Part shown: one piece after another, positions 14,522-64,000 of the stretch
Position numbering within the stretch: the stretch's first letter is position 1
Layout of the letters: each line of letters opens with the position of its first letter
Assembly: GCA_964544475.1 (NCBI GenBank)
Contig: CAZJBS010000010.1
Coordinates: 9,961 to 73,960, forward strand
Direction of reading: 5' to 3'
Length of the DNA: 64,000 nt
Source of the DNA: an uncultured Bacteroidota bacterium
GTDB taxonomy: Bacteria > CLD3 > SB21
Notes under the pieces: model-generated
Databases searched by the model: none
The model's input: the letters and a program-made list of their open reading frames with translations, nothing else
What the model was told of the DNA's origin: nothing
Program-made: the position numbers and the translations under genes

Positions 14522-14743
14522 ACGCTGGCAAGATACTCTTCGGTTCACAAAAAAACAAGCTCCGATCTCGGGGCCATTGTCCATTGGCGGTTGTTGTCCG
14601 TCGGATTGGCGGCCTACAGAAGGCCTGCGAGTCCTTAGATTATCATTGATTTTATTGGGCAGAATGGCAAAATTGCAAAGGTGACTCACCTGCGCTGCAT
14701 TAACGATTCGATTCCACATGCGGAAGGATTTCCAAACGGACAG

Positions 14744-16009: not shown

Positions 16010-16028
16010 CGAGGAAACAAAAACCAAC

Positions 16029-17513: not shown

Positions 17514-19087
17514 AAGACTTCCTGGACAACCGTTTGTTCGAGGGTCTCAACGCCGATGATTTCGAACATCTGGAAAAATTCATTCGTGTCGAAACGTATC
17601 CCGCAGGCGCCATTCTTATGGACGAGGGTCAGGCGGGAGACGCCCTGTATCTGCTGGGGCGCGGATCGGTGCACGTGTCCAGAAAATCCCCGGAAGGCCG
17701 CGATATTCCGCTGACCACGCGCCATACCGGTGATTTTTTCGGTGAAATGGCCCTGATCGAAGACGCCCCCCGCTCGGCCAAAGTGATTACGGCTGAGGCG
17801 TGCCGCGTCGGCCTGATATCAAAAACCGACTTCAACGCCATGTGGCACCATCAGCCGCAGATCGCTCTCAATATCATCAAAACGATCAGCGCGCGGCTTC
17901 GTCAAAGCAACGATCAGACGGTCCAGCACTTCCTCGAACGGGAGCAGATGCAGGCGCGGCAGCTCGAACGCCTGAGAGCGTTGTTTGATTTTTCGAAACT
18001 CGTGGCGCTGAGGGAACACGACAAGACTTTGTTTTATCTCGTACCGGATCTTGTCCATCGCCATGTACCATGCCGTGCCGCGATGTTGTTTGTGCGGGAG
18101 GAAAACGACGGCCGCTTTTACACCGAATCCAGGACCGATCATGTGGATACGCGTTGCGTGGTGGAGTCCGAAACCTCGGAGCGGATTAGCGCCATGCCGT
18201 CGTCGGACTACGCCGATCCGGAACTGGCCGCCCGGCTCCGCAACCTGGTGCCGGCCATACAAGAAGGTCCCCTCTGGATTGAGGGTCTTTTCTATGAATC
18301 CGAGTGGCTCGGGTTTCTGCTTTTCGAGCACGAGGCATGGAACGAAGAGGACCAGACGTTCATCCAGACTCTCGCCTCGTATCTGGCCGTGGTTCTAAGA
18401 AATATTCAGTTGACAAATCGTATGGTCGACGACGAAAAAATGTCGGCCATAGGCCGCGCGTCCAGTTCGTTCATGCATGACTGCAAAAACCTCATCGCCA
18501 TTGTCCATCTTTATGCGCAAATGATCTCGAGGACTTCCGACAAGAAGGAGATGGACGACATGATTGCCGAAATTGTCCGGAGCGCCAATCTCATCATGGC
18601 GATGTCCCGTGAAGTGTTATTCTACGCGAACGGCGAAATTCGTGTGAATCGGGAAGTGTTGAACGTGAGGCGCCTGATTGAAACCGCGCTGGCTTTGGCG
18701 AAGGACGACATGCAAAAACGCGAGATTGGAGTGACCCTGCATGTGCCCGACCATTTGTCGTACGCGTTTGACCAGGACAAAATGATTCGCGTTTTGTACA
18801 ACTTGATTTTGAATGCCTGCCAGGCTTCCGGGCCTGGCGGCGGACGCCTTCATATCGAGGCGATTCGCGAGGCGCACGATCTGATCATATTGATTCGCGA
18901 CAACGGTCCTGGTATTCCACGAGAAATCATGGCCCGCATGTTCACGCCGTTTGCGACGACGCGACAGGACGGCACCGGACTCGGTCTGGCCATTGTCAAA
19001 AGTATCGTGGAGGCCCACGACGGTGAGGTGACCGTCGAAAACAGGCCGGATGGCGGCGCGCAATTTGAATTGTCATTTCCTTTATGA
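17510..19087 (+). CDS. Sensor histidine kinase with N-terminal cyclic-nucleotide-binding domain
   Basis: 525 aa. cNMP-binding signature GDFFGEMALIEDAPRSAKV, a central GAF-like region, a His-containing dimerisation region (SSSFMHDCKNL) and a HATPase_c domain (IRDNGPGIP ... GTGLGLAIVKSIVEAHDG). Confidence 0.75.
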   Translation: MKDFLDNRLFEGLNADDFEHLEKFIRVETYPAGAILMDEGQAGDALYLLGRGSVHVSRKSPEGRDIPLTTRHTGDFFGEMALIEDAPRSAKVITAEACRVGLISKTDFNAMWHHQPQIALNIIKTISARLRQSNDQTVQHFLEREQMQARQLERLRALFDFSKLVALREHDKTLFYLVPDLVHRHVPCRAAMLFVREENDGRFYTESRTDHVDTRCVVESETSERISAMPSSDYADPELAARLRNLVPAIQEGPLWIEGLFYESEWLGFLLFEHEAWNEEDQTFIQTLASYLAVVLRNIQLTNRMVDDEKMSAIGRASSSFMHDCKNLIAIVHLYAQMISRTSDKKEMDDMIAEIVRSANLIMAMSREVLFYANGEIRVNREVLNVRRLIETALALAKDDMQKREIGVTLHVPDHLSYAFDQDKMIRVLYNLILNACQASGPGGGRLHIEAIREAHDLIILIRDNGPGIPREIMARMFTPFATTRQDGTGLGLAIVKSIVEAHDGEVTVENRPDGGAQFELSFPL

Positions 19088-19097
19088 AAGGTCCCTC

Positions 19098-20024
19098 ATG
19101 CGTTTCCCAGTGATGTTGATTCTGACGATTTTGACCATGCGCCCCGCCATTGCCGGAACGGGTGAAACGGGTTTTGCGTTTATGAAAATCGGCGTGGATG
19201 CCCGTGCGGCCGGCATGGGCGAGGCCATGACCGCCGTATCGACCGATGCCACGGCGTGGTTCTGGAATCCGGCCGGCATGGCCATGTCGGACCGGGCCGG
19301 CGTCGCCCTTACGCACAATCAATGGATTGAAGATGTCAGCCACAATTTTCTTGGCCTGAAAATCAATACGCGGGGCCACTATTTCGGAATCCATTACATC
19401 GCCACCGGCGTGTCGGACATTGAACAGCGGGAGATTCCGTCCGACGAGCCGACAGCCTTGTTTTCATCTCACGATGTGAATCTGGGTCTTTCGTATGCTC
19501 GTCGATTGAATGAGCGATGGTCGGTTGGCGCGACGGTCAATTACATGTACGAACGCATACAACACAGCGTCGATGCCGTGGGCGTGGATGCCGGCGTATG
19601 GTACAACGTCAGGTATGGGTACGACAATCCGGACATGAACGACCGCTGGCGGGTGGGTCTGGCCGTCTCAAATATCGGTCATTCGGGGAAACTCATCGAT
19701 CAGACCGTTCGCCTGCCGGGCGCCATACGGCTGGGGTCATCGTATGATATGGTACGTCAGACCGACGCGCGTCATCGCGTGACGATGGCCGTTGATCTGG
19801 TGAAACCGATCAAAGAGGATATCCATCTTCATACAGGGGCGGAATATGCGTTTCGTGAACGCATGTTTTTCCGCGCAGGTTATGTGGTCGGTTATGCGTC
19901 CCGGAGTTTTTCGGGAGGTGTCGGGATGAAAGTGTGGGAACGCTGGCGGTTGGATTATGCCGTCGTGCCGTTCAAGTATGAACTGGGCCTATCCCACCGG
20001 CTGACGGCGGCGTTTGAATTCTAA
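19098..20024 (+). CDS. PorV/PorQ-family outer-membrane beta-barrel protein (T9SS-associated)
   Basis: Start placed at MRFPVMLILTIL (signal peptide). The mature N-terminus GFAFMKIGVDARAAGMGEAMTAVSTDATAWFWNPAGMA matches the PorV/PorQ hallmark (GARxxGMGxA ... NPAG). C-terminal aromatic residue (F). Confidence 0.5.
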   Translation: MRFPVMLILTILTMRPAIAGTGETGFAFMKIGVDARAAGMGEAMTAVSTDATAWFWNPAGMAMSDRAGVALTHNQWIEDVSHNFLGLKINTRGHYFGIHYIATGVSDIEQREIPSDEPTALFSSHDVNLGLSYARRLNERWSVGATVNYMYERIQHSVDAVGVDAGVWYNVRYGYDNPDMNDRWRVGLAVSNIGHSGKLIDQTVRLPGAIRLGSSYDMVRQTDARHRVTMAVDLVKPIKEDIHLHTGAEYAFRERMFFRAGYVVGYASRSFSGGVGMKVWERWRLDYAVVPFKYELGLSHRLTAAFEF

Positions 20025-40944: not shown

Positions 40945-42039
40945 CTAAAACGCCACCCCGATACTGTAGAATTGCGATCCATCCCGTGCGTTGAAGTCAC
41001 CGGCCAGCTTCGTGGTGTATGCAAAATCGAATTTGAATATCGAATACGTTATGCCGGCGCCAAAATTGAGATCATACAGTTTTCCGGCCACGTCCAGGGC
41101 GCTTCCGGCCCGTAAGGCGAGAAAATCCGCGTAATCATATTCCAAACCGATATTATGACCGATCCGGTGCCAGCCGTTGTCCGTCCACGTCGTGAACAGT
41201 GCGGATCTGGTGAAGAACTTGCCTGAAAAACTGACCAGCGGATCGCTCCCCGTCGGGCGCCCTCGAACGATCAGGCGGTTGATTTCATACGTCGCATGGA
41301 CATTGTTGAATTCCGACTTGTAGACCGGGTACGTCAGCCCAACGCGCAGGTTGGTCGGCAACGGATCGGCCTGGTCTTCATCGACGTAGGCGATCTTCGG
41401 ACCGATATTCGCCAGGCTGGCGCCAAACGTCAGGTCGTTGATCAGGAGATTCTTTTTCATCACGCCGATATCGAGAGCCACCGAACTGCCGTATCCCTTT
41501 TGGGATTCGCCGGTGGCATTCTTGTTGGCCAGCTTGCTGTAGATGAATTTCAAATTTCCGCCGACGCCAAGATCCTCGCTGAGTTTTGTGCCATATGATG
41601 CGGCCAGGGAGAGGTCGAAGCTCGTAATGCGGCCCAGAACATCACCCTGGTTGTTCGTGATGTCCTGTTCACCGAGGTTAAAGAATGTGAAATTGAATCC
41701 CACGACGCCGATGTCTTCCAGATACCACAGGAAAGAGCCGTAATCGTAATAGAGGTCGCTCAGATTAAAAGCCGGCAGCCAGTTGACATGCATGAAGGCA
41801 ACGTTCTTGTTTCTTTCCGGCGTCGCCACAAAGCCGAGGGCGCCCGGATTCCAGTAGATTGCGTTGGCGTCATTTACATTGGACACACCGGACTGTCCGA
41901 GTCCGTTTTGACGGGCCCCGGGCGGAATGAGCAAAAATAAGACGCCGGCTTCACTCGTTTGGGCGCGGACGGAAAAGGAAGGGAAACCGACCCCGACGGA
42001 TGCCAGAATCAGCGCTGTCAAACAACCACGAAACAACAT
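40945..42039 (-). CDS. porV: Type IX secretion outer-membrane protein PorV (LptO)-like
   Basis: Start placed at MLFRGCLTALILASV. Mature N-terminus GVLFLLIPPGARQNGLGQSGVSNVNDANAIYWNPGALG, which is the PorV hallmark. C-terminal F. It is directly downstream of porU, the canonical porU-porV arrangement. Confidence 0.6.
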   Translation of the reverse strand: MLFRGCLTALILASVGVGFPSFSVRAQTSEAGVLFLLIPPGARQNGLGQSGVSNVNDANAIYWNPGALGFVATPERNKNVAFMHVNWLPAFNLSDLYYDYGSFLWYLEDIGVVGFNFTFFNLGEQDITNNQGDVLGRITSFDLSLAASYGTKLSEDLGVGGNLKFIYSKLANKNATGESQKGYGSSVALDIGVMKKNLLINDLTFGASLANIGPKIAYVDEDQADPLPTNLRVGLTYPVYKSEFNNVHATYEINRLIVRGRPTGSDPLVSFSGKFFTRSALFTTWTDNGWHRIGHNIGLEYDYADFLALRAGSALDVAGKLYDLNFGAGITYSIFKFDFAYTTKLAGDFNARDGSQFYSIGVAF

Positions 42040-42121
42040 GCGAATCCTCCAAAATGACCTTGGAATATGTGAAAATACAATCAAAAGTTGAATAGTTCAA
42101 TCCCTGAACCGTTTGTTGCTC

Positions 42122-45100
42122 CTACCTCGCGATCATCAGCTTTCCGATGGTGTGCGACTCGGAGGCATTGTCCAGTGATTTGACTTTGACCTTGTACAGG
42201 TAGACGCCATTCGCGAGACGGCTGCCGTCCTCATCCCTTCCGTCCCATGGTATGGAATTGTATCCAAAATTGGCCTGGCTGTCGAGCCGGCGAATCCTTT
42301 TACCCGATACCGTGTAAATGGTGATCTGGACCTCGGCGGCCGAGTGACTGACAACAAAGGTGAAGTTCGTTGAGGATCGGAACGGGTTGGGATAGTTCAT
42401 CAACCTGTCAATCTGGATGTGCGATTGATTGAAATCGCTGTCTTCGGTGTTGAGAACTTCAAAATTGAAACTTGCCGACGACGGATTATTGGCGTTATCG
42501 AAGGCGAGTATCCTGGCCGAATGTTTGCCAATAGCCAGTCCGGACAAGGTGACCTGCGCCGACCCGGAACGATAGGAGCCGACGTCGTAGGCAAAAGCCT
42601 CCGAAATATCATAGACGTGCCGGTCATCGATAATGGCCTGAAACTGGTGACCCATCGCGCCCGTGACATTGATGCCGGAGGAATCCCGGAGAACGATTTT
42701 CATGGTTGGCGTCCGTCGTACGGCATCACCCGACGCAAAGGATTGTCCCTCAAATTCTATCTGTATCGAAGGTCCGGTTGTGTCGGCCAGAACAGCTGAG
42801 ACGGAGTCGATGACAATCTGTCTGCTTGAACCGCCGGCATAGACTTCTCCGTCCGCTCCGTAAGCAATGACCGAGCCCTGTTTGTAGCTGTAACTGATAT
42901 CCCTGGGGGTCACAAACGTGGTGGAAAAAGTACCGTCGGTCACGCGGACTCTTCCGCGATACAATACCGGCGGTTCCAGGGCATACGTGATGCGCTGATT
43001 CACATCTGACGTGTATGTCTTTGCCAGCGACCGGTCGAAAACGGAAACGAGAAGGGTTCCGTTAAAATCGGTGTCAATGATCCCGGGTTGCCCTTCCACA
43101 GAACCCGTCAATGTGACCGGACTTAAAGCCGTCAGCACGGCCGGCTGTGCCAGATTGAAGCGGACATTCCGCGTTGCATAATGAATGTCGGCGGCCGGAT
43201 CGCCAAGATAATTGTACTTCTGCTTGTTGTCCTGATCGGAGAATCTTTCGACTTTTCCAAGGCGAATGGCTTCACCAATATTGCCCTGCACTTTCAGGTA
43301 TTTGAAAATGGAGGTCATCAAGTTAGTATTATTAACAGCGAAAACAGCTCGTGTCGCCGCCAGCAGACCAAAGCAACCCCGCTCTTTGGCCACGACGAGC
43401 TCTTCACCGCCACCTTGGACGTTCAGTTGATCAAACATGGCAAAAGAACAGGAGAAGTTTGTGAACAGGAAGTACTTGTCACGGTTTACTATCAACGGAA
43501 AATCGCGCGCATGCAAATAAACTTCCTCGTGGGCCAGTTGCCTAGGATTGCCGTGGCCGACATAGTTAATGATCAGAGCGCCCTGGTTGATTCTCTCAAT
43601 CAGAGCGTCTCTTGCCAGGATTTTCCGGCGGCGCGTCCCGGCCCATTCGTACGGATAGTCGATCAGATAGATTTTGTCCTGAATCAGATACGAGGGAATC
43701 TTGGTTGTATCGACGGCGAGACTTTCGGTCGGCTCCGTGTGCAGACTCAGTTCGTGAATACTCTGGTCGGCAATCTCGTCATCGGCAACGAAGGCAATCG
43801 TCTGTCGCCAGGCCGCCTGAGTCGACTGGGTTTCATGGAAGATAGTTTTCGTGATGCAGTTCGAGGCCTCATCCACCGTATTGCATGGTATCCGCCCGAT
43901 GCTGATGTCCGGTGACGCCAATTGGAAATAGGGAAACGCATACGGCTCGTCGATCGTGAATGCCACGGACACATCATTGATCCATGTGAACGCCTCGTCG
44001 ACCTGGCGATTGTACAGGAAGTACCCCGCTTCTGGCGAGTCATTGTGGATATAGTACGTGGGCACCCAATTGTGATTGGATCGGACCACAATGTGGCGAT
44101 AGTCGTAATCGGCATCTCCCAGCAGCAGAACGTGGGAAAGCCGGTCGCCTCTGTTGGGGGTTTGCCAGCGATAATAGGCATACCGAAGGAAGTCCCGTAT
44201 GGCCGTAGGATCCGGAATGCCCGCGGCAAATTCGTCAAAGATGTCCTGAACGTCGACAACCATGGTCTTGAAGCCGTTGTAGGCGGAGCGATGCTGAGCC
44301 AGCCGGTCAGCCTCATCCATGAAAGCCCGCGGCGTGATGATAACATAGTCGGCGGAATTGGCGGCGCTCTGCAGGTCGGAATTACGATCCCGTTCGACCT
44401 TCGATTTTGAAACGGATTTGGTCCTGGAGGTTGAAAACACGTGATAGCGTTTCGGCGATCCAATATTGGTTGTGTCGCTGAAGGTGACAGTGCCCGCACC
44501 GGTGGATCGCTGGATTTCCCTGGTGGACCAGGGCGTCGTGATATCCCAGACCTTTACTTTTCCCGGATCGGCATCGCGCGTGTTGATCGTGTACTGGTAA
44601 TTGCCGGCGGCAATGGGCGAGAAAACCGCCAGTTCGCCATCTCTCATAATGAGCATCCGGTCGTATTGGATCTCAAACCAGTCCAGAGCGGCCTGGCTTC
44701 CGGATGACGTCGGCTGATACGTCACGGAAAGCCGCCCCTGCGAAATCTGGGAAAGCGGTATCGAGAATGACAGGAATTTGGCGGCCGCGTACGAAAAGAC
44801 GGACGTCGTATACGGACCATTGTTGTCGACCATGACGGAGAAACGGTGTTGGGACGATTTGTTGTTGGCGCCCTTGAAACGAACCGTGTAGTCGGCCGCG
44901 GTGCCGGTCAACGGATCCTTGATCAGTCCTCCGGAGGGCATGTCCGACGATGCCGGGTACGTGGCGTTTTGCCCGCTCGTCAGGAGATCGAAAACCCATA
45001 GCAATCCGGATTCGTGAAAATTCGTCTCGTCTTTTTCAAAATGAAAATTGTCGCGGAATGAACCCTGCGGCGCAGGGTTGTCGCCGGTCGAAGCGCGTGT

Positions 45101-46216
45101 TTCCATCCGGAGACCATCCACGCCATCATTGAACGTCAGCCAATAAATATTCTCTTCACTGTAGTAATTCAGTTGATAGACATGCTTATTGCGAGAGGGA
45201 TCGAATTTCCAATAACGATTTCCCCTTCCATAAAAAAGGACATAGTCGTTGTTGTCGAATTTGCCGTCGGATTCGCCTTCTACGACTATCGCATTTTCCC
45301 GGAGAGCCAGGCCCGACACGCCGACCGGATCGGACGGGTTGGACAAATCCAGTCCCGCCGGCAGGACCGGCAGCAAGCCGCCTCCGTTGTTGTAGATTTT
45401 TATCGTACTCGGATCGATGGTGGACGCGCTGATGCCCAGGCTTTCAAAGAAGGTCTTGTCCAGTTTGTATACGCCTTCTTCGGTGATCCGGATCTTATAC
45501 CAATCACCTGTGTTCATCCCATTGGACGTTTTCCTCAGCATGGCGGAAGCCGCACGCACCTTAAACTGTGCGGCCGATGGATGATTCAGGAAAAGGTTAT
45601 CGGCCGTGGACTTCTCCGTTCGGCCGGCCTGCCGGTAAGCCACGCGTTGGTTTCCGGGAGTGAACACAACCGTTACGGTGAGTTTTTTGTAAAGACGAAG
45701 CCGTTTTTGAACGGGATTGTATCGGACCGGATACACGTTGACATACACGGTATTCCAATCCTGCAGGAGATTCGGCGAGGTGGCGACCGCCGGTGTGGAA
45801 GGAATCCACGCATCCCGCCGGTAGGATTCTCCTTCGACATATTCAACGGATGTCAACATCTGATCCTCAAACGAGGGCAAGCCCACCGGCCGCAACCGGA
45901 CATCCGTCCACTCGACGCTTTCACCTTCGGACACGGTCACCTGAGCCTGCGAGCCAACAGGCAGGGCCAGCAAAAAGCTCCGGTAGGGCAATTCGGGCTC
46001 CATCGCCTTTGACTCCAACTCAAAGTCAGGACCCAGGCGAACCACAGAGTACGACGCGTTTTCGGCCTCAAACGTCTCGATGGGACAGGTTTCCGTCGAT
46101 AGGACGAACCCGCATCCCTGTTCATTCGACCAGAGCAACTCCGTCTTTGACTGCGCAACGCCGCTTGCCGAAAATCCGGCAAAGGCCAAACAAAGCAATA
46201 ATAATATTCTTGCCAT
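42122..46216 (-). CDS. porU: Type IX secretion C-terminal signal peptidase PorU (C25 gingipain-like peptidase family)
   Basis: About 1365 aa from MARILLLLCLAFAG. Central C25-like region (DYVIITPRAFMDEADRLAQHR ... VLLLGDADYDYRHIV ... NYVGHGNP). C-terminal T9SS tail NYPNPFRSSTNFTFVV ... GVYLYKVKVKS. Confidence 0.65.
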   Translation of the reverse strand: MARILLLLCLAFAGFSASGVAQSKTELLWSNEQGCGFVLSTETCPIETFEAENASYSVVRLGPDFELESKAMEPELPYRSFLLALPVGSQAQVTVSEGESVEWTDVRLRPVGLPSFEDQMLTSVEYVEGESYRRDAWIPSTPAVATSPNLLQDWNTVYVNVYPVRYNPVQKRLRLYKKLTVTVVFTPGNQRVAYRQAGRTEKSTADNLFLNHPSAAQFKVRAASAMLRKTSNGMNTGDWYKIRITEEGVYKLDKTFFESLGISASTIDPSTIKIYNNGGGLLPVLPAGLDLSNPSDPVGVSGLALRENAIVVEGESDGKFDNNDYVLFYGRGNRYWKFDPSRNKHVYQLNYYSEENIYWLTFNDGVDGLRMETRASTGDNPAPQGSFRDNFHFEKDETNFHESGLLWVFDLLTSGQNATYPASSDMPSGGLIKDPLTGTAADYTVRFKGANNKSSQHRFSVMVDNNGPYTTSVFSYAAAKFLSFSIPLSQISQGRLSVTYQPTSSGSQAALDWFEIQYDRMLIMRDGELAVFSPIAAGNYQYTINTRDADPGKVKVWDITTPWSTREIQRSTGAGTVTFSDTTNIGSPKRYHVFSTSRTKSVSKSKVERDRNSDLQSAANSADYVIITPRAFMDEADRLAQHRSAYNGFKTMVVDVQDIFDEFAAGIPDPTAIRDFLRYAYYRWQTPNRGDRLSHVLLLGDADYDYRHIVVRSNHNWVPTYYIHNDSPEAGYFLYNRQVDEAFTWINDVSVAFTIDEPYAFPYFQLASPDISIGRIPCNTVDEASNCITKTIFHETQSTQAAWRQTIAFVADDEIADQSIHELSLHTEPTESLAVDTTKIPSYLIQDKIYLIDYPYEWAGTRRRKILARDALIERINQGALIINYVGHGNPRQLAHEEVYLHARDFPLIVNRDKYFLFTNFSCSFAMFDQLNVQGGGEELVVAKERGCFGLLAATRAVFAVNNTNLMTSIFKYLKVQGNIGEAIRLGKVERFSDQDNKQKYNYLGDPAADIHYATRNVRFNLAQPAVLTALSPVTLTGSVEGQPGIIDTDFNGTLLVSVFDRSLAKTYTSDVNQRITYALEPPVLYRGRVRVTDGTFSTTFVTPRDISYSYKQGSVIAYGADGEVYAGGSSRQIVIDSVSAVLADTTGPSIQIEFEGQSFASGDAVRRTPTMKIVLRDSSGINVTGAMGHQFQAIIDDRHVYDISEAFAYDVGSYRSGSAQVTLSGLAIGKHSARILAFDNANNPSSASFNFEVLNTEDSDFNQSHIQIDRLMNYPNPFRSSTNFTFVVSHSAAEVQITIYTVSGKRIRRLDSQANFGYNSIPWDGRDEDGSRLANGVYLYKVKVKSLDNASESHTIGKLMIAR

Positions 46217-46412
46217 ATAGGACAACAACGCTGGTTTTATGGAACTCTCGTGAGGAAAGAGAGACTTCAATCAGATCCTTTTCATCAATAACAACAAACA
46301 AGAACAGAAAGTTATTGTATCAAAGCGACCGATTGGTTCTCCTTTTATGGCGGTTTATTGGGCTGAGTGCAATATAGAAGCCTGCGCCAGTATTGTCAAG
46401 TACATTAAACGG

Positions 46413-55963: not shown

Positions 55964-56132
55964 GACGCGGGCAACTCCTTCATGGAACGTATGTTTTCAA
56001 AAGACGCGCTAAAGTAGTCGTTCCCGCGAAGAAAATAAAGGAGAATGTGCCGCGCCGGCGTAAAAAACGCCGCGCGGAGTTTCCCGGGCGGCGCGAAAAA
56101 AAAGTGAAACGATTAATTCCTTGACAACCATC

Positions 56133-56162
56133 GGAGCGTGCGCTAACTTGGAACAGCTATCG
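56133..56162 (+). promoter_or_regulatory. Weak sigma-70-like promoter candidate for the first island gene
   Basis: TTGACA, then a 17-bp spacer, then TAACTT. The -10 is poor, so this is a low-confidence call. Confidence 0.2.
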
Positions 56163-56278
56163 CTATCGGGTTATCGTATGAATTCCAGAACAGACTATTT
56201 CAGCGTCGAAATTTTTCACGTCCGGCGGCAGGCTATGGCCGGCCAAGCCAGAACAGCCAGGAACAAAATAACCGACAT

Positions 56279-57049
56279 ATGTCGTCTATCACGCCCAAAA
56301 TGAGAAGATATACGACATGGATCATTCGTTTATGCAATAGTTATCCGACATGGCCCTCGACGAAGAAACACATGAGCGGAGATACTAAACCTGGTGTTCC
56401 TCATCAAACTCTTGGGGACGCAGCCCACGCGCTTCTGAAAGGAACTATCGGCAGTGTTCCGGTAGGCGGTGCTCTTGCTGCGGAATTTTTTAGTTTCGTA
56501 CTAAAACCTCCCATGCAGAAGCGAATGGAGGACTGGATGGCCGACCTGGTTCAGAGGCTGACCGAGATGAAGATGTCGATCGACGATTTGCAAGAGAACC
56601 AGCGTTTCGTCACAAATACACTGCAATCTCTGCGTATTGTTCAAATGACACACTCACCTGAGAAGCTCAGAGCCTTACGGAATGCAGTTCTCAATTCAAT
56701 CGCGCCACCGCCTTTCGACGAATCCTTGGAACAGGTGTTCCTTTCGTATGTTGATTCTTTCACTGATTACCATATTAGGTTTCTTGCTATGATCGCGGAA
56801 CCGAATTGGCCGATCAAACAACGCAAGGTGGTTACCTCACCTGACGCAAATCTTTATGAAATCATCTACCATCACTTTCCGCAGCTGCAAGGATCATCGT
56901 TTGTCACTCAAGTCTTTCAGGATTTGAACGCGCGTGGGCTGCTGGAACCCAACTGGGACCGTGGCTTTAAGCTAAGCTGGAGTAGTGGATATCCGGTGTT
57001 GTCTCCACTCGGAAGATCGTTTCTCAAGTTCATTTCGGAGGCTGAGTAG
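56279..57049 (+). CDS. Hypothetical protein (first gene of the lower-GC island)
   Basis: 256-aa ORF with alternative in-frame starts at 56300 and 56372 (MSGDTKPGV...). The 56279 ATG lies inside a perfect palindrome, cgacatatgtcg. No family recognised. Confidence 0.5.
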   Translation: MSSITPKMRRYTTWIIRLCNSYPTWPSTKKHMSGDTKPGVPHQTLGDAAHALLKGTIGSVPVGGALAAEFFSFVLKPPMQKRMEDWMADLVQRLTEMKMSIDDLQENQRFVTNTLQSLRIVQMTHSPEKLRALRNAVLNSIAPPPFDESLEQVFLSYVDSFTDYHIRFLAMIAEPNWPIKQRKVVTSPDANLYEIIYHHFPQLQGSSFVTQVFQDLNARGLLEPNWDRGFKLSWSSGYPVLSPLGRSFLKFISEAE

Positions 57050-57067
57050 ATGTCTCGGGCCACGTCC

Positions 57068-57234
57068 GATAACATGCGTGCACACGATTGGTCGCCCCGA
57101 CGCGAGCGTCAGATGCCCCCGGCCACGATTTTTGTGCGTCGGGGCTCCCCTACGGCGCACCGCGCGGAACGAATTGAAAACAAATTCATTGATACCGCTT
57201 GTGCGCCGCAGCGTGTGCACGCAGACCGTTATGT
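57068..57234 (+). repeat. attC-like imperfect palindromic element 1
   Basis: 5' end GATAAC-a-tgcgtgcacacg and 3' end cgtgtgcacgca-gacc-GTTATGT. The terminal 12-mers are inverted repeats. It contains an internal 10-bp hairpin (gccccgacgc / gcgtcggggc). It lies in the gap after the first island gene. Confidence 0.45.
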
Positions 57235-57243
57235 GCAATGCCG
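57089..57243 (+). repeat. 155-bp direct repeat, copy A (about 88% identical to 62580..62733)
   Basis: Aligned by eye: tggtcgccccgacgcgag[c/t]gtcagatgcccccggc ... cgaattgaaaacaaattcattgataccg ... cagcgtgtgcacgc ... gttatg[t/c]gcaatg, with a few substitutions and one indel. Confidence 0.8.
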
Positions 57244-57301
57244 CCTAAAAATATGAACAAACCGCACGCCATCATTCTCAACATACATAGGAGAACGTAA
57301 A

Positions 57302-57811
57302 GTGAAATCAAAGACGAACGAGGTTGTCAAGAAACTTCGTGAACTCAACACGATAATAAAATCACTGGATCCTTCTATCCGGCCGCAGTCTTTTGAATTG
57401 CTCCGTCCAGTCTTCTTCAGCGATGAGCCTGAGCACGAGCGAGATCAACGAGACCAGCAAACAGAGACGGCTGGCAAGTCAACAGGCACTCACAACAAAG
57501 AAAAGTTTTTCGGGTCGTTTGATCACAAAAAGCCCAGTGATAACGTCTTCTTGATTGCAGCATGGCTCTACTCCCAACACGGAGTTTTTCCACTCACATC
57601 AGATACTATTAAGGCGGTGGCGGACGAAACAGGTGTCACTGTTCCCGGTAGGCCAGATATGACCCTCAAAGCGGCTCAAAAAAAGGCAAAGCACCTATTT
57701 TCCAAACAAGGCGCTGGTTATAAACCAACTGTTCACGGTGAGACGTTCCTCAAAGACACATATCGAGTCAAGAAAGGAAACAGCCCCATACCAAAGGAGC
57801 CTGAGAATTGA
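57302..57811 (+). CDS. Hypothetical protein, upstream partner of the HEPN-motif protein
   Basis: 169 aa. Its stop overlaps the next gene's start by 4 bp. The C-terminal roughly 70 aa (FLIAAWLYSQHG ... LTSDTIKAV ... GAGYKPTVHGETFLKD) resemble the N-terminal domain of the downstream protein, so the two share a domain. Confidence 0.5.
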   Translation: MKSKTNEVVKKLRELNTIIKSLDPSIRPQSFELLRPVFFSDEPEHERDQRDQQTETAGKSTGTHNKEKFFGSFDHKKPSDNVFLIAAWLYSQHGVFPLTSDTIKAVADETGVTVPGRPDMTLKAAQKKAKHLFSKQGAGYKPTVHGETFLKDTYRVKKGNSPIPKEPEN

Positions 57812-58551
57812 CAATAGTCGAGTTTCTACATCCAATACTGAGATCACCGCACCGGGACCTTTGTGTTGCGGCTCTGTATTATTCGAAAAGATTCCAACAG
57901 TCTGATTCATTAACCGTCGATCAAATTCGTTCGTTGCTTAGAAGAGCTCGTGTTCCAAGTGTTAATAACATCAACATAGCAGACGTGCTTGCTAAATCAG
58001 CTCCTCATGTCGACAGTGCTGGCAAGAAAGGAAAAGCTTTTCTTTGGGCGATCACTTCGTCAGGCGAAAAGCACATACGAGCCTTGCTAAATATTCCTGA
58101 GGTCGATATTGCAACGGTCCATGAGGTCGGCACACTTGAGCGCCTTATCAACTCCATCGGTGATCCTGATGTGGCCAACTATCTAACAGAAGCAGTCACT
58201 TGCCTACGTGTTGACGCTCTTCGTGCCTCTATCGTGTTTCTGTGGGCTGGCGCCGTTCGTACCATTCAAAAGGAAATGATCGATCTTGGCGCGTCCTCAG
58301 TTGACACCGCCTTAAAGAAATTCGACCCCAAATCCCGGTCGATCAAAGGGCTAGACGACTTTGCGTATGTCAAGGATTCGACAGTGCTTCTAGCAGCCCA
58401 AGAACTTGCCATCTTTGACAAGAATGAGCGGTCCACACTCGAGGAGGCTCTGAACTTAAGGAACAAATGTGGTCATCCCAGTAAGTATCGACCTGGCCCG
58501 AAAAAGGCTGCAAGTTTTATTGAAGACGTCACAACCATCGTTTTTTCTTGA
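57808..58551 (+). CDS. HEPN-motif protein (predicted RNase, toxin or abortive-infection type)
   Basis: 247 aa, apparent TTG start. C-terminal R-N-x-x-x-H motif (LNLRNKCGHP, about nt 58459-58476) inside a predicted helical domain, matching the HEPN Rx4-6H signature. N-terminal domain is shared with the preceding gene. Confidence 0.5.
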   Translation: MTIVEFLHPILRSPHRDLCVAALYYSKRFQQSDSLTVDQIRSLLRRARVPSVNNINIADVLAKSAPHVDSAGKKGKAFLWAITSSGEKHIRALLNIPEVDIATVHEVGTLERLINSIGDPDVANYLTEAVTCLRVDALRASIVFLWAGAVRTIQKEMIDLGASSVDTALKKFDPKSRSIKGLDDFAYVKDSTVLLAAQELAIFDKNERSTLEEALNLRNKCGHPSKYRPGPKKAASFIEDVTTIVFS

Positions 58552-58580
58552 GATGGCGTGCGGTTGATAGCGGCACTGCA

Positions 58581-58724
58581 CATAACAGGCCGCACTACGA
58601 CGTTCGCTCATTTGATATGGCGATAAGAAAGCTGTGCAAGAAACAAAAGTGCTCACTCAATGGCTAACCATTCCGCTATTGCTCCATTCGTTAGCTACTG
58701 CGTAGTGCGGCCGGAACGTTAGGC
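58581..58724 (+). repeat. attC-like imperfect palindromic element 2 (best-preserved copy)
   Basis: 5' CATAAC-a-ggccgcactacg and 3' cgtagtgcggcc-ggaac-GTTAGGC. The 12-bp arms are perfectly complementary. The 3' end is a canonical attC core sequence GTTRRRY (GTTAGGC), and the 5' end is an inverse-core-like ATAAC. Confidence 0.5.
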
Positions 58725-58752
58725 GGCATGTCCACGAATCTGAGTATTACAT

Positions 58753-59340
58753 ATGAACCTATTCACAACTGAAGCCCTGCGGCTATTTGTTGTCTTTTTC
58801 GTACCTGGCTTCATTTCAATGCGTGCTTTCTCCCTACTAGTCGCGTCTGAAAGACATGATTTTTCAAAATCATTGGTCGAAGCAATCGCATTTAGTTGCT
58901 TAAACTTTGCTCTTCTTTACTGGCCCATGAGTGTCATCCATTCGAATGATTTTGCTCATCAGTACCCAATACTATACTACCTCAGTGCTCTGGGTATTCT
59001 GTTAGTTGCACCGTGTGCTTGGGCATGGTTGTTCTATCGAATTATGATTTCTGACTGGTACTCGAAACGATTTCGAGACCCTTACCCAACTCCATGGGAC
59101 AGCTTTTTCGCTCGCGGAGAAGCATGTTGGGTAGTTATCCACCTAAAGAGTGGCAGGAAGATTGGTGGTATTTATTCTGGACGCTCTCGCGCATCAGCTT
59201 ATCCGACCGAACAACAAGTCTATCTCGAAGAAGTGTGGGAGGTGGATCAGAAGACCCAACGCTTTCTACGTAAGAAGAATCGGACAGCTGGACTTATAAT
59301 CAGCAGATCAGAGATGACTCACATTGAGTTCTACAGTTAA
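58753..59340 (+). CDS. Hypothetical membrane protein (3 TM helices plus C-terminal soluble domain)
   Basis: 195 aa. Hydrophobic segments LRLFVVFFVPGFISMRAF, AIAFSCLNFALLYWPMSVI and LYYLSALGILLVAPCAWAWLFY. No family recognised. Confidence 0.5.
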   Translation: MNLFTTEALRLFVVFFVPGFISMRAFSLLVASERHDFSKSLVEAIAFSCLNFALLYWPMSVIHSNDFAHQYPILYYLSALGILLVAPCAWAWLFYRIMISDWYSKRFRDPYPTPWDSFFARGEACWVVIHLKSGRKIGGIYSGRSRASAYPTEQQVYLEEVWEVDQKTQRFLRKKNRTAGLIISRSEMTHIEFYS

Positions 59341-59354
59341 GAAAGGATCCGCCA

Positions 59355-59525
59355 ATGGCAGACGAGACGAAAAACACGAATTCCTCTAACGTTCCGAAAT
59401 CGGACGAAAACAAGGGCTCAATCAAGGCGGGACGAGATATCAAAGAGAGTTACAGCCCACGCAACGAGCTCGATACTTCTAAACCGCCGCAGGGAGATGG
59501 TACATCAAAAAAGGACGATAAGTAA
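59355..59525 (+). CDS. Candidate 56-aa hydrophilic, low-complexity small protein
   Basis: ATG 14 nt after the membrane protein stop, preceded by gaaaggatcc (Shine-Dalgarno-like). It encodes MADETKNTNSSNVPKSDENKGSIKAGRDIKESYSPRNELDTSKPPQGDGTSKKDDK, predicted disordered. Not in the ORF track (shorter than 60 aa). Confidence 0.25.
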   Translation: MADETKNTNSSNVPKSDENKGSIKAGRDIKESYSPRNELDTSKPPQGDGTSKKDDK

Positions 59526-59540
59526 GAGCGTGGACTCGCC

Positions 59541-59716
59541 GCATAACAGGCGAGCACACGTTCGCTCGCGGCGTGCTCATTCCCGTCGGGTGCACGCCGC
59601 TTCGCACACGGCGCACCGACGATTTTCGATTGGAGATTATGAATAGATTTGATCTATGAAGAACGATGAAACCAAGATTGGCGGGCGCCGCGTCGTGTGC
59701 TCGCGAACCGTTATGC
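59541..59716 (+). repeat. attC-like imperfect palindromic element 3
   Basis: 5' GCATAAC-a-ggcgagcacacg and 3' cgtgtgctcgcg-aacc-GTTATGC. The arms are inverted repeats. It shares an internal 11-mer, acggcgcaccg, with element 1. Confidence 0.45.
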
Positions 59717-59755
59717 GCAGTTTGCCCGACTGATCACAACCACCAAGGTGCTAAA

Positions 59756-62098
59756 ATGAAACACTTTGCAGAAGTACTTCAAACTCTCGGCGCGAGTAAA
59801 ATCGAGCCACTTTCTGAAACTCAGCATTGGGACTTCTGGAAGGCAGTCTACTCGACTCCAATCTCCGAAGTGAGCGGCTACTATCTATATTTGAAATCGA
59901 GCTGTCCTTGGAAAGAAGGGAACAACAGGGCAAATTGGGACACATGGCAAAAACCTTCAAAGGGAAACTACGAAATTATTGTAACGCCGGCCAGTGACTT
60001 CATAAGGAAGCCCAGTCAAACTATTGCAGCCTTCAAGGGAACTCGCGTGAGAACATCGAAGGAACTCTTGCTGAACAATTTTGTGAAGAGCCTCACACTG
60101 GAAGAAATAATATCAGAGGAAAATTTCATCGACCCGACACTTGAACTTGAGAACGGTCGCGTGAGCCAGGATACCACACACTTTCTCATCTCTTGGATCA
60201 AGGGACGGGATAGTGCAACCAAAGGTGTATCCATTGCAGCTTTGGTTGCTGATGGCGGCGTTGGCAAAACCACAGTGTCTCGTGTACTGAGTCGATCTCT
60301 CCATGAGGACGATCCGACTGTTATCCCTATCCTCATAGAATCCGATCAATGGCGGCATCTGCTTAACACGCCTATTTCGCTTAGCAACCTTTGGGACTTG
60401 GCCATCTCACGGCGCTTTCAGAATGCCGCTAGACTGTTGTCTAATGAAATGGCTTTTCGCGTTCTCGTAAGGGAAGGACTCTTTGTAATCATCTTCGACG
60501 GTTTTGATGAACTTTGCGTTAATTCTTATGCTGTGTCGCGTCCCAAAGAAATTATCGACGAGCTTATAACCCTCCTGTCGCCTGAAGATGAGCCCGTACA
60601 AGCAAAAATTGTATTAACAGCCCGCAGCACGTTCTGGGAGTCATTGGCAGATGAAATCGAGCTTAAGGACATCGAGACATTTTACCTTCGGGGGTTCGAT
60701 AATGATCAACGCAAGAGCTATTTCGACAAAACGCTAACCACTCACGAAGAAAGAGACATTGCAAATCGTTTGTCTCGACAGATTAGTGGAGCCATGTACG
60801 AAGGCATCAAACCTGAAGATCACAATTACGAAAGACCTTCCGGAGTACCATTTATCTTGAGCCTAATCGCCCAGTACGTCCGGGGCAGTGTCCATTTGAT
60901 TGAGGTAAATCCATACATGGCGGACCCGTTGGAGCGTCTCCTCGAAGATATCTGTCGTCGAGAAAACCTTCGACAATCACTTGACATCGAGCCCACAAAA
61001 CAATTAGAGCTTTTTGAGGAACTCTTCCGGGAATATCAGGAATCAATCCAACTAACCGATTTGCAAATGTATCTTGACGTAATCTGCAACATCAACGACA
61101 AAGAGACCGCCAACCGGTTCACGAACCATGTTTTCCTAACTCGCACTGAAAAAGACACTTTTGGGCCGCGCTATGAAGTCCTCCGAGTATACTTTATAGC
61201 ACGCTTCCTTGCCAAAGGCCTGCTTGAGCTGACGACAAAAACTCCTCGACAACAAATCGCACGGTTGCTGGCAAAGAACAGCACCGGAAAGACCCAGGTC
61301 ATCGACTGGCTTATCTTGCAATTGCGTAATTTGGAACAAACAACCCTCATAAGGTCAATACACCACGCACTAGCCATTATTCGCGATCAAGATAACCGTT
61401 CTACGCTCTCTCAGTCTTCTTCGGCGATTTTCCATGTTGTTTCCAGCCTCATCTCGGGCGGCGACAAAGATGAACGCACTCGTCTACTCTGTGATTTCTA
61501 TAATATCGATAGAAGCGGCACAGTTGTTTTCAAGGCAGTTGTATTCGCAGGTGTGGTCCGGTCCTTCAGTTTTCGTGACGCAATCTTCGAGAAATGTGAA
61601 TTTTACGATGTCGAGTTTAAGAATTGCACTTTTGGCGATGCTTCTACATTCCGAACATGTAGCTTCTACGGAAATCTTAAATTTACTAATTGTTCAAATG
61701 CGGGCTCGATAAAAACACAGATCTGCACTTTTTCAAGGGAATCAGAGTTCGCACTTGATGTCATTAGAAACTCACACTCAAGAATGGAGCTAAAACGTTC
61801 TTTCGCAGAAGAAGCATTGTCCCGATCCCTTCGCAAGTTTCGAAAGGACAATCGGTTTATTCCTATCCAGTACGAGCACCGCAAGACTGGATTCAAGCCA
61901 GGCAACCCATATAACGAGACAGTGTGGCAGGAACTTGAACGAGCTGGGCTTATTCACTCTCATCACATATCTGGAGTCACCGGCGGAGGTCTCAACATTG
62001 TCGACGACAAGAACGTGCGACGAGAAGTGTCGTCCTTCCTGGACAATGGCGTACTTGGCAATTTGTTGACCAACGTGCTAACAAAAATGATCACATAA
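59756..62098 (+). CDS. STAND/NACHT-like P-loop NTPase with C-terminal pentapeptide-repeat region (antiphage-sensor-like architecture)
   Basis: Start placed at MKHFAEVLQ (ATG 59756, AAGGTG Shine-Dalgarno upstream), about 780 aa. Walker A ALVADGGVGKTTV (about nt 60254-60271). Walker B hhhhDGFDE (FVIIFDGFDEL, about nt 60497-60511). A long helical middle region. Pentapeptide-like repeats (AVVFAGVVRSFSFRDAIFEKCEFYDVEFKNCTFGDASTFRTCSFYGNLKFTNCSN, about nt 61580-61770). The N-terminal roughly 160 aa are of unknown function. Confidence 0.65.
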   Translation: MKHFAEVLQTLGASKIEPLSETQHWDFWKAVYSTPISEVSGYYLYLKSSCPWKEGNNRANWDTWQKPSKGNYEIIVTPASDFIRKPSQTIAAFKGTRVRTSKELLLNNFVKSLTLEEIISEENFIDPTLELENGRVSQDTTHFLISWIKGRDSATKGVSIAALVADGGVGKTTVSRVLSRSLHEDDPTVIPILIESDQWRHLLNTPISLSNLWDLAISRRFQNAARLLSNEMAFRVLVREGLFVIIFDGFDELCVNSYAVSRPKEIIDELITLLSPEDEPVQAKIVLTARSTFWESLADEIELKDIETFYLRGFDNDQRKSYFDKTLTTHEERDIANRLSRQISGAMYEGIKPEDHNYERPSGVPFILSLIAQYVRGSVHLIEVNPYMADPLERLLEDICRRENLRQSLDIEPTKQLELFEELFREYQESIQLTDLQMYLDVICNINDKETANRFTNHVFLTRTEKDTFGPRYEVLRVYFIARFLAKGLLELTTKTPRQQIARLLAKNSTGKTQVIDWLILQLRNLEQTTLIRSIHHALAIIRDQDNRSTLSQSSSAIFHVVSSLISGGDKDERTRLLCDFYNIDRSGTVVFKAVVFAGVVRSFSFRDAIFEKCEFYDVEFKNCTFGDASTFRTCSFYGNLKFTNCSNAGSIKTQICTFSRESEFALDVIRNSHSRMELKRSFAEEALSRSLRKFRKDNRFIPIQYEHRKTGFKPGNPYNETVWQELERAGLIHSHHISGVTGGGLNIVDDKNVRREVSSFLDNGVLGNLLTNVLTKMIT

Positions 62099-62131
62099 GG
62101 GATTTATAATGGCCGTGCGGTCGGGCAAACT

Positions 62132-62341
62132 GCGCATAACACGCGCATAAACCGTTCGTTCGGGCACTTGCTTTTGTGCGGTACCTGTGTCCCAATCTTT
62201 TGGGTAGTCAATCTGTAAACATTATGACCATTCAACAAAAAGTGCCCTCACCAACCATGCACGCGCCGCAAACAACAGCAGTTGAAGACTTTTATCAAAG
62301 GCGGCTTGTGCGTGGCTGCGGTTATACGCCGGACGTTAGGG
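62132..62341 (+). repeat. attC-like imperfect palindromic element 4
   Basis: 5' GCGCATAAC-acgcgcataaaccg, where the motif is tandemly reiterated, and 3' cggttatacgc-cggac-GTTAGGG. The arms are roughly complementary (gcgcataaaccg versus gcgtataaccg). Confidence 0.4.
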
Positions 62342-62579
62342 TTCCGTCGCACGACTTTTTTTCTTTCTCGACTTTGTTGGGGCTATGATGTAATTTGATC
62401 CTGTAAGTTCATTTCTTGGGGAGTAGCAAGTGGCTCTGGGTTCAGTTCTTTCGTGCATTTCAAGTCTCGTTCAGGAAAACGAATACCGCGCTCGTGCGAT
62501 TCGTACGGGGTTGAACGGTCATACCAGTTGCCGAGATTTCGATTGGGATTCCCGAATTCCTCCTCCCCGTGCCACGTCC

Positions 62580-62733
62580 TGGTCGCCCCGACGCGAGTGT
62601 CAGATGCCCCCGGCTGCGATTTTTGTGCGCCGGGCTTCCCTCGGCGCACGGCGCGGATCGAATTGAAAACAAATTCATTGATACCGATTGTGCACCGCAG
62701 CGTGTGCACGCGTGACGTTATGCGCAATGACTG
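62580..62733 (+). repeat. 155-bp direct repeat, copy B (about 88% identical to 57089..57243). A decayed attC-like element that keeps its 3' end.
   Basis: 3' end cgtgtgcacgcg-tgac-GTTATGC is retained. The 5' arm is degenerate (ccgtgccacg versus cgtgcacacg) and the ATAAC is lost (gaattc). The internal hairpin of copy A is disrupted here (gcgccgggc). Confidence 0.8.
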
Positions 62734-62755
62734 CGACCTGAGTCCCAACTAACTT

Positions 62756-63367
62756 ATGGCACCCTATCAGAGAATTCCCATATGGGAGAACCGGCTGCGC
62801 GTGAAGCGTCTTTGGCAGTTTCGAGAGGCTCTGCAACTGTACTTCGCCGCTTATTCAGCCTCGCGAGTATCGTTTAGCGATTCTCACAGACACCATCGCG
62901 TAACTGTGAACTTACAAATACACTCCGTCTATTCCATGGTTCAAGATGCAGGAATTGATACTTCGTTTTCTGGGCCTCATCGGTCATCATCTGTCACTCT
63001 TGATCGAAAGGCGGATCTTGTTCTAGACGTATTCTCTTTGGTAGATCTCAACATCGATCCCCAGTACCTTGGAGATTGTATTGTAAGAGCTATTGGTAAG
63101 TACAATGACGACCGCGCAAGAGCCGTTTTGCGAACGATCAATCCGTTGTTCTGGGCGGGTAAGCTGGTTGATGCCGTTCTTGATCTGCCATTGAAACTTT
63201 TGCGGAGCTTCGGTATCAAAGTACCCAAAATTGAAGACACACTTGCCGGCAGAGTTATTGGCGGACTGCTCAAGTCTGTGACTTATCTGGCCGCCTTTCT
63301 GACTGTCGCCGAAAAGCTGGGCTATCTTGAGACATTCAAAGGTTTTCTTAAATCTGCGTCACCCTGA
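62756..63367 (+). CDS. Hypothetical protein (203 aa)
   Basis: ORF about 20 bp downstream of repeat B. No family recognised. Confidence 0.5.
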   Translation: MAPYQRIPIWENRLRVKRLWQFREALQLYFAAYSASRVSFSDSHRHHRVTVNLQIHSVYSMVQDAGIDTSFSGPHRSSSVTLDRKADLVLDVFSLVDLNIDPQYLGDCIVRAIGKYNDDRARAVLRTINPLFWAGKLVDAVLDLPLKLLRSFGIKVPKIEDTLAGRVIGGLLKSVTYLAAFLTVAEKLGYLETFKGFLKSASP

Positions 63368-63436
63368 AACTGAGGGCGCAGTCAATGCGCATAACACCTT
63401 AAAAGAGTTCGAAGTCAATAGAAAAAGCCCTCCCGT

Positions 63437-63460
63437 GGCGACCGGGTCGCCTATTTTGTT
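63437..63460 (+). terminator. Rho-independent terminator downstream of the 62756..63367 gene
   Basis: ggcgacc-g-ggtcgcc perfect 7-bp stem followed by tattttgtt. It lies inside a candidate fifth palindromic element that is bounded by GCGCATAAC at 63387 and a weak GTTATCC at 63670. Confidence 0.45.
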
Positions 63461-63711
63461 GGCTTTTTGCTTCGATAACCGATGGGCCGACGCCTGGCAT
63501 GTCTTTACGAATGGTGAAGCAAGTTGCATCGACATCCATGACGATACGAATTGAAAATACGATTGAACCCATGGCCGAGACTTCACCCATGCCCTGCGCG
63601 AAGCCAAGGAATCCTCAAGGTAGGATTTGTCAGATGCGGCTTGCAGGGTACGGCGTGTATCGGCGGGACGTTATCCGACACCCCCAAAACAGTGCTCAAA
63701 AGAGGTATCAA

Positions 63712-64000
63712 ATGAATTTGCCAGAAGATCGTAATCGCACTTTATCCCAGTTTCGAGAAGGGCCGATGCTACTCGACAAGACTGTCAGCGATCTGCAAGA
63801 CTCCGAATTGGATCTCATTCCTACCGAAGGTGGATGGTCTATTCGACAGATCGTCCATCACATTGTGGATGGGGATGATATTTGGAAGTTTGGTATCAAG
63901 ATGGCCATTGGTAACGAACAGGCTGAATTTTCACTGGAATGGTACTCCTCACAGACGCAAGATACTTGGGCTGATCGATGGGCGTACACCCAAAGATCAA
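63712..64000 (+). CDS. DinB_2 (DinB/YfiT-like) family protein, 5' portion (runs off the window end)
   Basis: ATG at 63712. MNLPEDRNRTLSQFREGPMLLDKTVSDLQDSELDLIPTEGGWSIRQIVHHIVDGDDIWK contains the metal-binding His region typical of DinB_2. No stop before the window end. Confidence 0.55.
   Translation, partial: MNLPEDRNRTLSQFREGPMLLDKTVSDLQDSELDLIPTEGGWSIRQIVHHIVDGDDIWKFGIKMAIGNEQAEFSLEWYSSQTQDTWADRWAYTQRS

Follow-up and report, generated by a model that had tools for sequence, protein, structure and literature searches.

Probable integron-type attC sites in a gene cassette array beside ychF in an unclassified bacterial lineage

Discrete circular units that are joined within a GTT-type box are the defining logic of integron cassettes. 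The recombination sites of these cassettes, attC, fold from the bottom strand, which is on average 2.12 kcal/mol more stable than the top strand (PMC5027507). In a canonical attC of 57-141 bp, each arm has a spacer of 5-6 nt, the R' box (5'-RYYYAAC) forms the 5' end of the reactive bottom strand, and the extrahelical bases, G16 and T23/24, are found on the R''/L'' arm (PMC5027507). A cluster of attC sites lacking integron-integrase (CALIN) is defined by two or more attC sites that lie within 4 kb on the same strand, with no intI nearby (Cury et al. 2016, PMC4889954). Here we describe a 64,000-nt stretch (the window) from an uncultured bacterium, GenBank assembly GCA_964544475.1, contig CAZJBS010000010.1, positions 9,961 to 73,960. 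Approximately 56 kb of the window, here called the core, ends with the gene ychF, and the remainder is an island in which a short motif, TGCGCATAAC / GTTATGCGCA, recurs between the genes.

We conclude with high confidence that the motif is the conserved outer box of integron-type attC sites and that the DNA from approximately 56340 to the end of the window is a cassette array. In brief, TGCGCATAAC is the inverse-core R'' box (...ATAAC) and GTTATGCGCA is the core R' box (GTTAT...). The array consists of six or seven promoter-less gene cassettes beside ychF, each with one or two open reading frames (ORFs) and an imperfect palindrome of 145-208 nt. By most of the criteria tested the element is an attC array, as its boxes, hairpin, placement, hybrid joints and strand bias all agree with one.

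The decisive evidence comes from comparing the start of each cassette, lettered A to G from ychF, with its own end. An inverted-repeat search showed pairing between the bases that directly follow a GTTAT box and those that directly precede the next ATAAC box, which lies 0.6-2.4 kb downstream. Start and end are complementary at 21 of 21 positions in cassette D and over 27 nt (89%) in cassette F. Over the 21 positions past GTTA, a start agreed with the reverse-complemented end of its own unit at 13-18, versus 5-13 for the ends of other units. We also rebuilt the circular form of the cassettes from end flank, box, body, G and a candidate start sequence. The circle rebuilt with its own start gave the most stable fold (rank 1 of 7) in all five cassettes, for which the chance is about 6e-5, and this form was 5-20 kcal/mol more stable than the form in the array. 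The pairing of own start with own end points to discrete circular units that were opened and joined inside GTTA, so that the bases past the joint move with the next unit. The joint is resolved to within GTTA, and the exact cut probably lies between G and TT. A sequence-only reading of the window had proposed that a recombinase crosses over inside GTT/AAC as in attC; this is supported, as the joint falls in the invariant GTTA and the boxes close palindromes that follow the ORFs and can fold as single-stranded DNA.

The features of the array are as follows, with joints in the window quoted as the G of GTT.

56184..56339, plus strand: leader separating the conserved region upstream of ychF from the first joint, possibly attI-like or secondary-site DNA
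56340..56346, plus strand: leftmost joint box GTTATCC, with the predicted G/TT cut at 56340/56341 and no family-type palindrome upstream
56341..57228, plus strand: cassette A, 888 nt, ORF 56372-57049 (225 aa, no family match), GC content 0.516
57067..57234, plus strand: attC1, 168 nt, CGATAAC ... GTTATGT, the minus strand being the one that probably folds and recombines
57229..58718, plus strand: cassette B, 1490 nt, ORFs 57302-57811 (169 aa) and 57808-58551 (247 aa, AF_1680-like, PF27235)
58580..58724, plus strand: attC2, 145 nt, ACATAAC ... GTTAGGC
58719..59710, plus strand: cassette C, 992 nt, ORFs 58753-59340 (DUF6338) and 59355-59525 (56 aa)
59541..59716, plus strand: attC3, 176 nt, GCATAAC ... 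GTTATGC
59711..62335, plus strand: cassette D, 2625 nt, ORF 59756-62098 (780 aa, NACHT NTPase with C-terminal pentapeptide repeats)
62134..62341, plus strand: attC4, 208 nt, doubled boxes, GCATAAC-AC-GCGCATAAAC ... GGTTATACGC-CGGAC-GTTAGGG
62336..62717, plus strand: unit E, 382 nt, no convincing ORF, holds the decayed attC5 (approximately 62567-62723)
62718..63670, plus strand: cassette F, 953 nt, ORF 62756-63367 (203 aa, no family match)
63389..63676, plus strand: composite attC6, own GCATAAC at 63389-63395 and closing GTTATCC at 63670-63676
63671..64000, plus strand: start of cassette G, DinB_2-family ORF from 63712, cut by the end of the window

All plausible ORFs to the right of ychF are encoded on the plus strand and the left neighbours are all encoded on the minus strand. 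In cassettes A, B, C, D and F the ATAAC box lies 16-36 nt past the last stop codon. The GTTA box follows 145-208 nt after the ATAAC box and precedes the next start codon by 26-68 nt. The GC content falls from 0.55-0.62 left of approximately 56000 to 0.46-0.50 in the island, with averages of 0.55 for the core and 0.48 for the island. A sigma-70 promoter scan gave nothing above the level of shuffled sequence; it should be noted that sigma-70 may not be the promoter type of the host.

The exact 10-mer TGCGCATAAC occurs in the whole window at 59710(-), 62131(+), 62717(-) and 63386(+). These are four copies against 0.10 expected, and none of 100 shuffled sequences reached four. Copies with one mismatch are found at 57228(-), 58578(+), 59539(+) and 62143(+), the last being the second copy of the tandem that had been described at 62132. 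All seven copies listed by the sequence-only reading are present at their positions and in their orientations, and the ATAAC relatives that it placed at 57068 and 63475 exist as CGATAAC (57067-57073 and 63473-63479). Its description of the copies as confined to intergenic DNA holds for all copies in the island, and so does its view that they form the outer ends of long imperfect palindromes. It had overlooked the boundary box GTTATCC at 56340, and also that the copy at 62717 is part of a decayed element without a partner box.

The motif had not been noticed in the core, and GCRCATAAC is indeed found six times in 56100-64000 (all within 57228-63395) versus never in the 56.1 kb of core. The looser pattern C[AG]CATAAC has seven matches in the island versus two in the core. 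Both core matches belong to a tandem GGTTATG(Y)G within the coding sequence of PorV, a type IX secretion protein; this near-motif tandem, GGTTATGTGGTCGGTTATGCG at 19879-19899, appears to be incidental.

The four intact elements, attC1 to attC4, were folded with DNA parameters and z scores were calculated against shuffled sequence. They have a common Y-shaped plan, with a box helix of 6-9 bp, a bulge of 3-5 nt on one arm, a helix of 11-13 bp and two terminal hairpins. In attC1 this gives a Y shape with a 3-nt bulge and a 12-bp helix between box helix and hairpins; its minus strand folds at -51.8 kcal/mol (z = -5.74) and its plus strand at -46.2 kcal/mol. The minus strand values are -24.5 kcal/mol (z = -2.15) for attC2, -46.4 kcal/mol (z = -5.00) for attC3 and -36.0 kcal/mol (z = -2.04) for attC4. 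The box pairs are CGATAAC/GTTATGT, ACATAAC/GTTAGGC, GCATAAC/GTTATGC, GCATAAC/GTTAGGG and GCATAAC or CGATAAC/GTTATCC. The boxes at the two ends carry the invariant AAC and GTT of integron attC sites.

The minus strand folds better than the plus strand in six out of six elements, by a mean of approximately 2.3 kcal/mol. On its 3' arm an unpaired T, TAA or AAG is found at positions 18-24, approximately 11-12 nt past the spacer and similar to the distal canonical T; attC2 has a lone unpaired T at position 21 and attC4 a bulged T. The order of ORF and then site makes the minus strand the bottom strand. We therefore favour the minus strand as the recombination substrate, at a confidence well short of certainty. 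The extra spacer bases on the 3' arm of the plus strand suggested instead that the plus strand reacts, with the ORFs antisense. We judged this less likely because of the greater stability of the minus strand in all six elements, the order of ORF and attC, and the unpaired bases on the 3' arm of the minus strand.

Several observations weigh against an assignment to integron attC sites. We did not find a tyrosine recombinase or integron integrase in the 64-kb window. A co-occurring recombinase had been suggested by the sequence-only reading. The Pfam scan for Phage_integrase covered core ORFs of at least 220 aa, less those overlapped by longer ORFs and two above 1000 aa; the ORFs in 50-56 kb were read from the ORF list and precomputed Pfam families. 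A six-frame scan of the window for the box II motif was also negative. Position 3 of the RYYYAAC consensus is consistently A (GCATAAC) and not Y, with the complementary T in R'. The sites, at 145, 168, 176 and 208 nt, are longer than the published 57-141; the branched terminal structure, which holds the excess length here, is known to be long in chromosomal integrons. The spacer is one-sided, with 3-5 nt on the 5' arm of the minus strand and 0-2 nt opposite, where the textbook has 5-6 nt on each arm. Such extra bases on the 5' arm of the minus strand alone would favour the plus strand as reactive. The equivalent of the canonical extrahelical G16 is absent from the minus strand folds of attC1 to attC4. 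In each cassette the outer stem pairs for an extra 16-27 nt past the crossover, which also departs from the textbook attC. Finally, the subtype pattern CGTGTGCWCGCNNNNCGTTATGYGC was found in none of the representative genomes, and its one match in a metagenome is a chance match in a glucan phosphorylase gene. Two home-made attC detectors were discarded, as they missed known sites and hit coding DNA.

These irregularities would also fit recombination sites of a non-canonical recombinase, a divergent tyrosine recombinase or another hairpin enzyme, that recognises the one-sided bulge and the long stem, perhaps on the plus strand. In its favour, the window has no intI, and the host comes from a deep lineage without classification. 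The ORF orientation would predict the opposite spacer asymmetry, the sites lack the canonical extrahelical G, and the ychF junction varies across assemblies although no integrase adjoins it. However, the AAC/GTT boxes, the cassette organisation, the hybrid joints, the bottom-strand bias and the unpaired bases approximately 11-12 nt past the spacer all fit integrons, and CALINs that are serviced in trans are common (PMC4889954). We give this explanation a slim chance. A somewhat different concern is that the island is foreign to the genome and was joined to it as a chimera at approximately 56183. In that case the elements would remain attC sites, but neither the lack of an integrase nor the position next to ychF would hold. 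No assembled Logan contig runs across 56183, the GC content steps from approximately 0.6 to 0.48 at the join, and the DinB gene is approximately 88% identical in DNA to genes from genomes of 47-48% GC. Yet a single 101,053-nt NCBI contig is on record for proteins of both core and island, core and island contigs are found together at 100% identity in the same samples, and strain variation would be expected to cause breaks at cassette arrays. A chimeric join is quite improbable.

Generic intergenic palindromes, either repetitive extragenic palindromes and bacterial interspersed mosaic elements (REP/BIME) or miniature inverted-repeat transposable elements (MITE), could have spread by transposition or have a role as terminators or in RNA stability, without any link to cassettes. 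The elements are intergenic palindromes with conserved ends, and one of them holds a terminator-like hairpin with a T-run. It is the only one with a T-run, though, and none of the elements matched Rfam. The 56 kb of core holds no copies, which is not the dispersed distribution that such repeats call for, and the interiors are mostly dissimilar, with the exception of attC1 and attC5. Complementarity between own start and own end over 0.9-2.6 kb is not a product of either kind of repeat, and we regard this origin as highly improbable. As an alternative to a crossover site, the sequence-only reading had offered a shared operator of an island-encoded regulator, and the 10-mer does recur in both orientations in intergenic DNA. 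This option found no support. No helix-turn-helix protein or other regulator is present among the island ORFs, the motif occurs only at the ends of the 145-208-nt structured elements downstream of ORFs, and its pairing partner is 140-200 nt away, so that there is no compact palindrome. Since the joint evidence already explains why the motif is conserved, an operator has next to no chance of being correct.

Based on the integron-type reading, we suggest the following mechanism. One strand of the palindrome, most likely the minus strand, would fold to a hairpin that the ATAAC/GTTAT boxes close at its base. A tyrosine recombinase of the integron type, whose gene lies elsewhere, would then cleave in the AAC/GTT triplet, and this cleavage would either excise a cassette as a circle or insert one. 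The outcome would be hybrid sites in which the bases past G/TT come from the next cassette, and the common box of 9-10 nt would keep such hybrid sites pairable at the base. Both the identity of the enzyme and the strand that reacts are inferred here. A more far-reaching view is that the array is an actively turning-over cassette store with non-canonical sites, that new cassettes enter it at a junction beside ychF without an integrase gene next to it, and that the sites are served in trans by a divergent integrase or another hairpin recombinase; we consider this rather unlikely. In that version the one-sided spacer bulge, the lack of an extrahelical G and a private outer stem of 16-27 nt that pairs only in the excised circle would be properties of the system.

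The six sites in the window lie 0.4-2.6 kb apart and no intI was found in the 56 kb to the left, with a view of 0.3 kb to the right. As the window has no recombinase and the array adjoins ychF, the array is a CALIN within the window. It resembles described CALINs in having 6-7 attC-type sites less than 4 kb apart on one strand, with cassettes of mostly unknown function, and in size it is near the typical number of approximately five sites (PMC4889954). It differs in that its right side is cut by the window, so that an integrase beyond 64000 is possible, and in that assemblies from more than 25 metagenomes break at its junction with ychF, which suggests that turnover is still under way and that the array is no dead remnant. 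The likeness to sedentary chromosomal integrons, such as the one with the Vibrio cholerae repeats, lies in boxes of the RYYYAAC/GTTRRRY type, in long branched sites with a more stable bottom strand, and in partial similarity within the array, where attC1, attC3 and attC5 have common arms. In contrast to those repeats, the sites described here are longer (145-208 nt), have unpaired spacer bases on one arm, lack the canonical extrahelical G, and combine a conserved box of 9-10 nt with 16-27 nt of outer-stem complementarity, past the crossover, that is private to each cassette.

Mobile integrons (classes 1-5) have the same arrangement of ORF and attC, a hybrid R' box and a stop codon near or in R'', which is also seen in the metagenomic DinB cassette described below. 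Unlike them, the array has no resistance genes and no intI/attI/Pc platform, its sites are 2-3 times longer, and its host is environmental. The leftmost joint recalls insertion at attG sites (Loot et al., bioRxiv 10.1101/2022.09.11.507474), as joint 56340 links a cassette to non-palindromic DNA and a relative that keeps the gene order has no array at this spot; the difference is that the array holds several cassettes and is not a solo insertion. The sequence GTTATCCGACATGGCCC (56340-56356) is complementary to the end of cassette A, GGGCCACGTCCGATAAC (57057-57073). The leader gave no good hairpin on folding, and the non-palindromic joint at 56340 could be an attI, an attG or a decayed attC.

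The start of ychF lies 377 nt left of the first joint and is followed by aroB, a gene for a Lon-N protein, murJ and a gene for a sigma-54 regulator, all on the minus strand. Same-strain Logan contigs are 99.9-100% identical to the window; those that carry ychF, from three samples, end at 56183, and none bridges this point. For a close relative, with a YchF in the same cluster of at least 90% identity, 24 of the 24 contigs that were read, which come from many samples, end at the equivalent of 56200 or 56210. In all, the ychF junction is a break point in more than 25 assemblies, as would be expected at this edge if cassette content varies between strains. A more distant relative (GCA_964415295.1, CAYPYN010000005.1, 1-8130), with a MurJ 67% identical, keeps the order ychF-aroB-lonN-murJ-response regulator and served as an empty site for comparison. 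Upstream of its ychF are genes for an amidase, DoxX, Cdd1, GAF/PAS and HSP90 proteins, with no array and no integrase. The lack of an array in this relative, together with the systematic breaks at the junction, indicates that the array is accessory. The pair GCGCTAAC...GGTTATCG at 56139-56176 was rejected as a crossover site; the close relative has TTTATCG there and the conserved sequence runs on past it.

An independent, external line of support for the cassette reading comes from an unrelated metagenome assembly (GCA_015665585.1, JADDYB010204296.1), which encodes a DinB protein in a gene 78% identical to that of cassette G. The end of this unit, GGTGGCGGCGCATAAC, has the stop codon inside the box and the same end box, GCGCATAAC, as the window. 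Its start, GTTCTGCGCCACCCCC, is complementary to the end at 13 of 16 positions (17-32 and 551-700), the end GGCGCATAAC being matched by the start GTTCTGCGCC. At -23 kcal/mol over 140 nt its hairpin is weak, and its distal box now reads GTGATGC, a degenerate form.

DinB genes with 83-85% identity (approximately 88% at the DNA level) were also found between recX and panD at three loci, in genomes with a GC content of 47-48%. In two of these, L087 (1165-1610) and L088 (6050-6495), the DNA homology to 63653-64000 of the window begins at the last GTTATCC box, which reads CATTATGCACC in L088. The GC content of these genomes matches that of the island and not the 55% of the core, which suggests transfer of the gene between lineages. 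A mini-palindrome after the DinB stop codon in L088 (6712-6760, GAGCTAAC...GTTAGCAC) resembles an attC to the eye but folded no better than shuffled sequences (z = -0.3 and -1.5), and is probably not a functional site. Four further loci with array-like small genes on one strand around a DinB homologue were not used; no attC was evident and one gap measured 58 nt.

The cassettes encode mostly orphan proteins, and no database record was found for the proteins of cassettes A and F. Candidates for functional screening are the 780-aa NACHT/pentapeptide NTPase of cassette D, the two-gene AF_1680-like module of cassette B and the DUF6338 protein of cassette C. In cassette B the 169-aa orphan ORF and the 247-aa AF_1680-like ORF overlap by 4 nt and may form a two-component module. 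Cassette D is unusually large (2.6 kb), and its NACHT/pentapeptide architecture resembles that of STAND-type defence or signalling proteins; the 780-aa protein had no match in PADLOC.

Three of the sites have an irregular make-up. Tandem boxes on both arms of attC4 (62132-62152 and 62321-62341), GCGCATAAC-AC-GCGCATAAAC / GGTTATACGC-CGGAC-GTTAGGG, give two nested box helices, and the doubling may be a trace of aberrant or nested recombination. The attC5 element is a paralogue of attC1 with approximately 90% identity that has lost its ATAAC box and whose 5' arm is degraded; having lost these parts, unit E is not excisable alone. We dropped a supposed left flank common to attC1 and attC5, as realignment places the similarity in the decayed stem. 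Inside attC6 there is a hairpin resembling a terminator, with a T-run (63437-63451), and also a further box, CGATAAC (63473-63479), that opens a family-type palindrome of 204 nt. The site probably arose by fusion or deletion between two neighbouring sites.

A short motif that was noticed by eye would thus be the signature of integron cassette recombination in a lineage without classified relatives. This is a known kind of element in a new host, and it leaves the current understanding of how integrons work unchanged. It widens the known host range of attC and also its structural range, to sites that are long and Y-shaped, with extended private stems and a spacer on one side. Models trained on proteobacterial attC sites may overlook such sites or assign them the wrong orientation, and curated examples can therefore improve the discovery of cassettes in metagenomes.

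The host belongs to a deep lineage with features like those of the Fibrobacterota, Chlorobiota and Bacteroidota (FCB) group. The closest named relatives of its MurJ and YchF lack a classification, and those of MurJ carry just the label "[bacterium]". Among representative genomes, YchF reaches at best approximately 60% identity, spread over many phyla, so that synteny around ychF is uninformative there. Hallmarks of type IX secretion are encoded in two regions of the core, 14681-20024 and 40945-46270, namely two PorV homologues, a C25 peptidase and proteins with an FlgD_ig tail.

Two minor features of the joints and the leader should be added. The same 11-mer, GTTATCCGACA, is present at the leftmost joint (56340-56350) and at the last joint of the window (63670-63680), which indicates that a second box subfamily, CGGATAAC/GTTATCCG, coexists with GCGCATAAC/GTTATGCGC. 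The leader contains direct repeats, with CCAGAACAG at 56184 and 56247, and CGACAT at 56272, 56312 and 56346.

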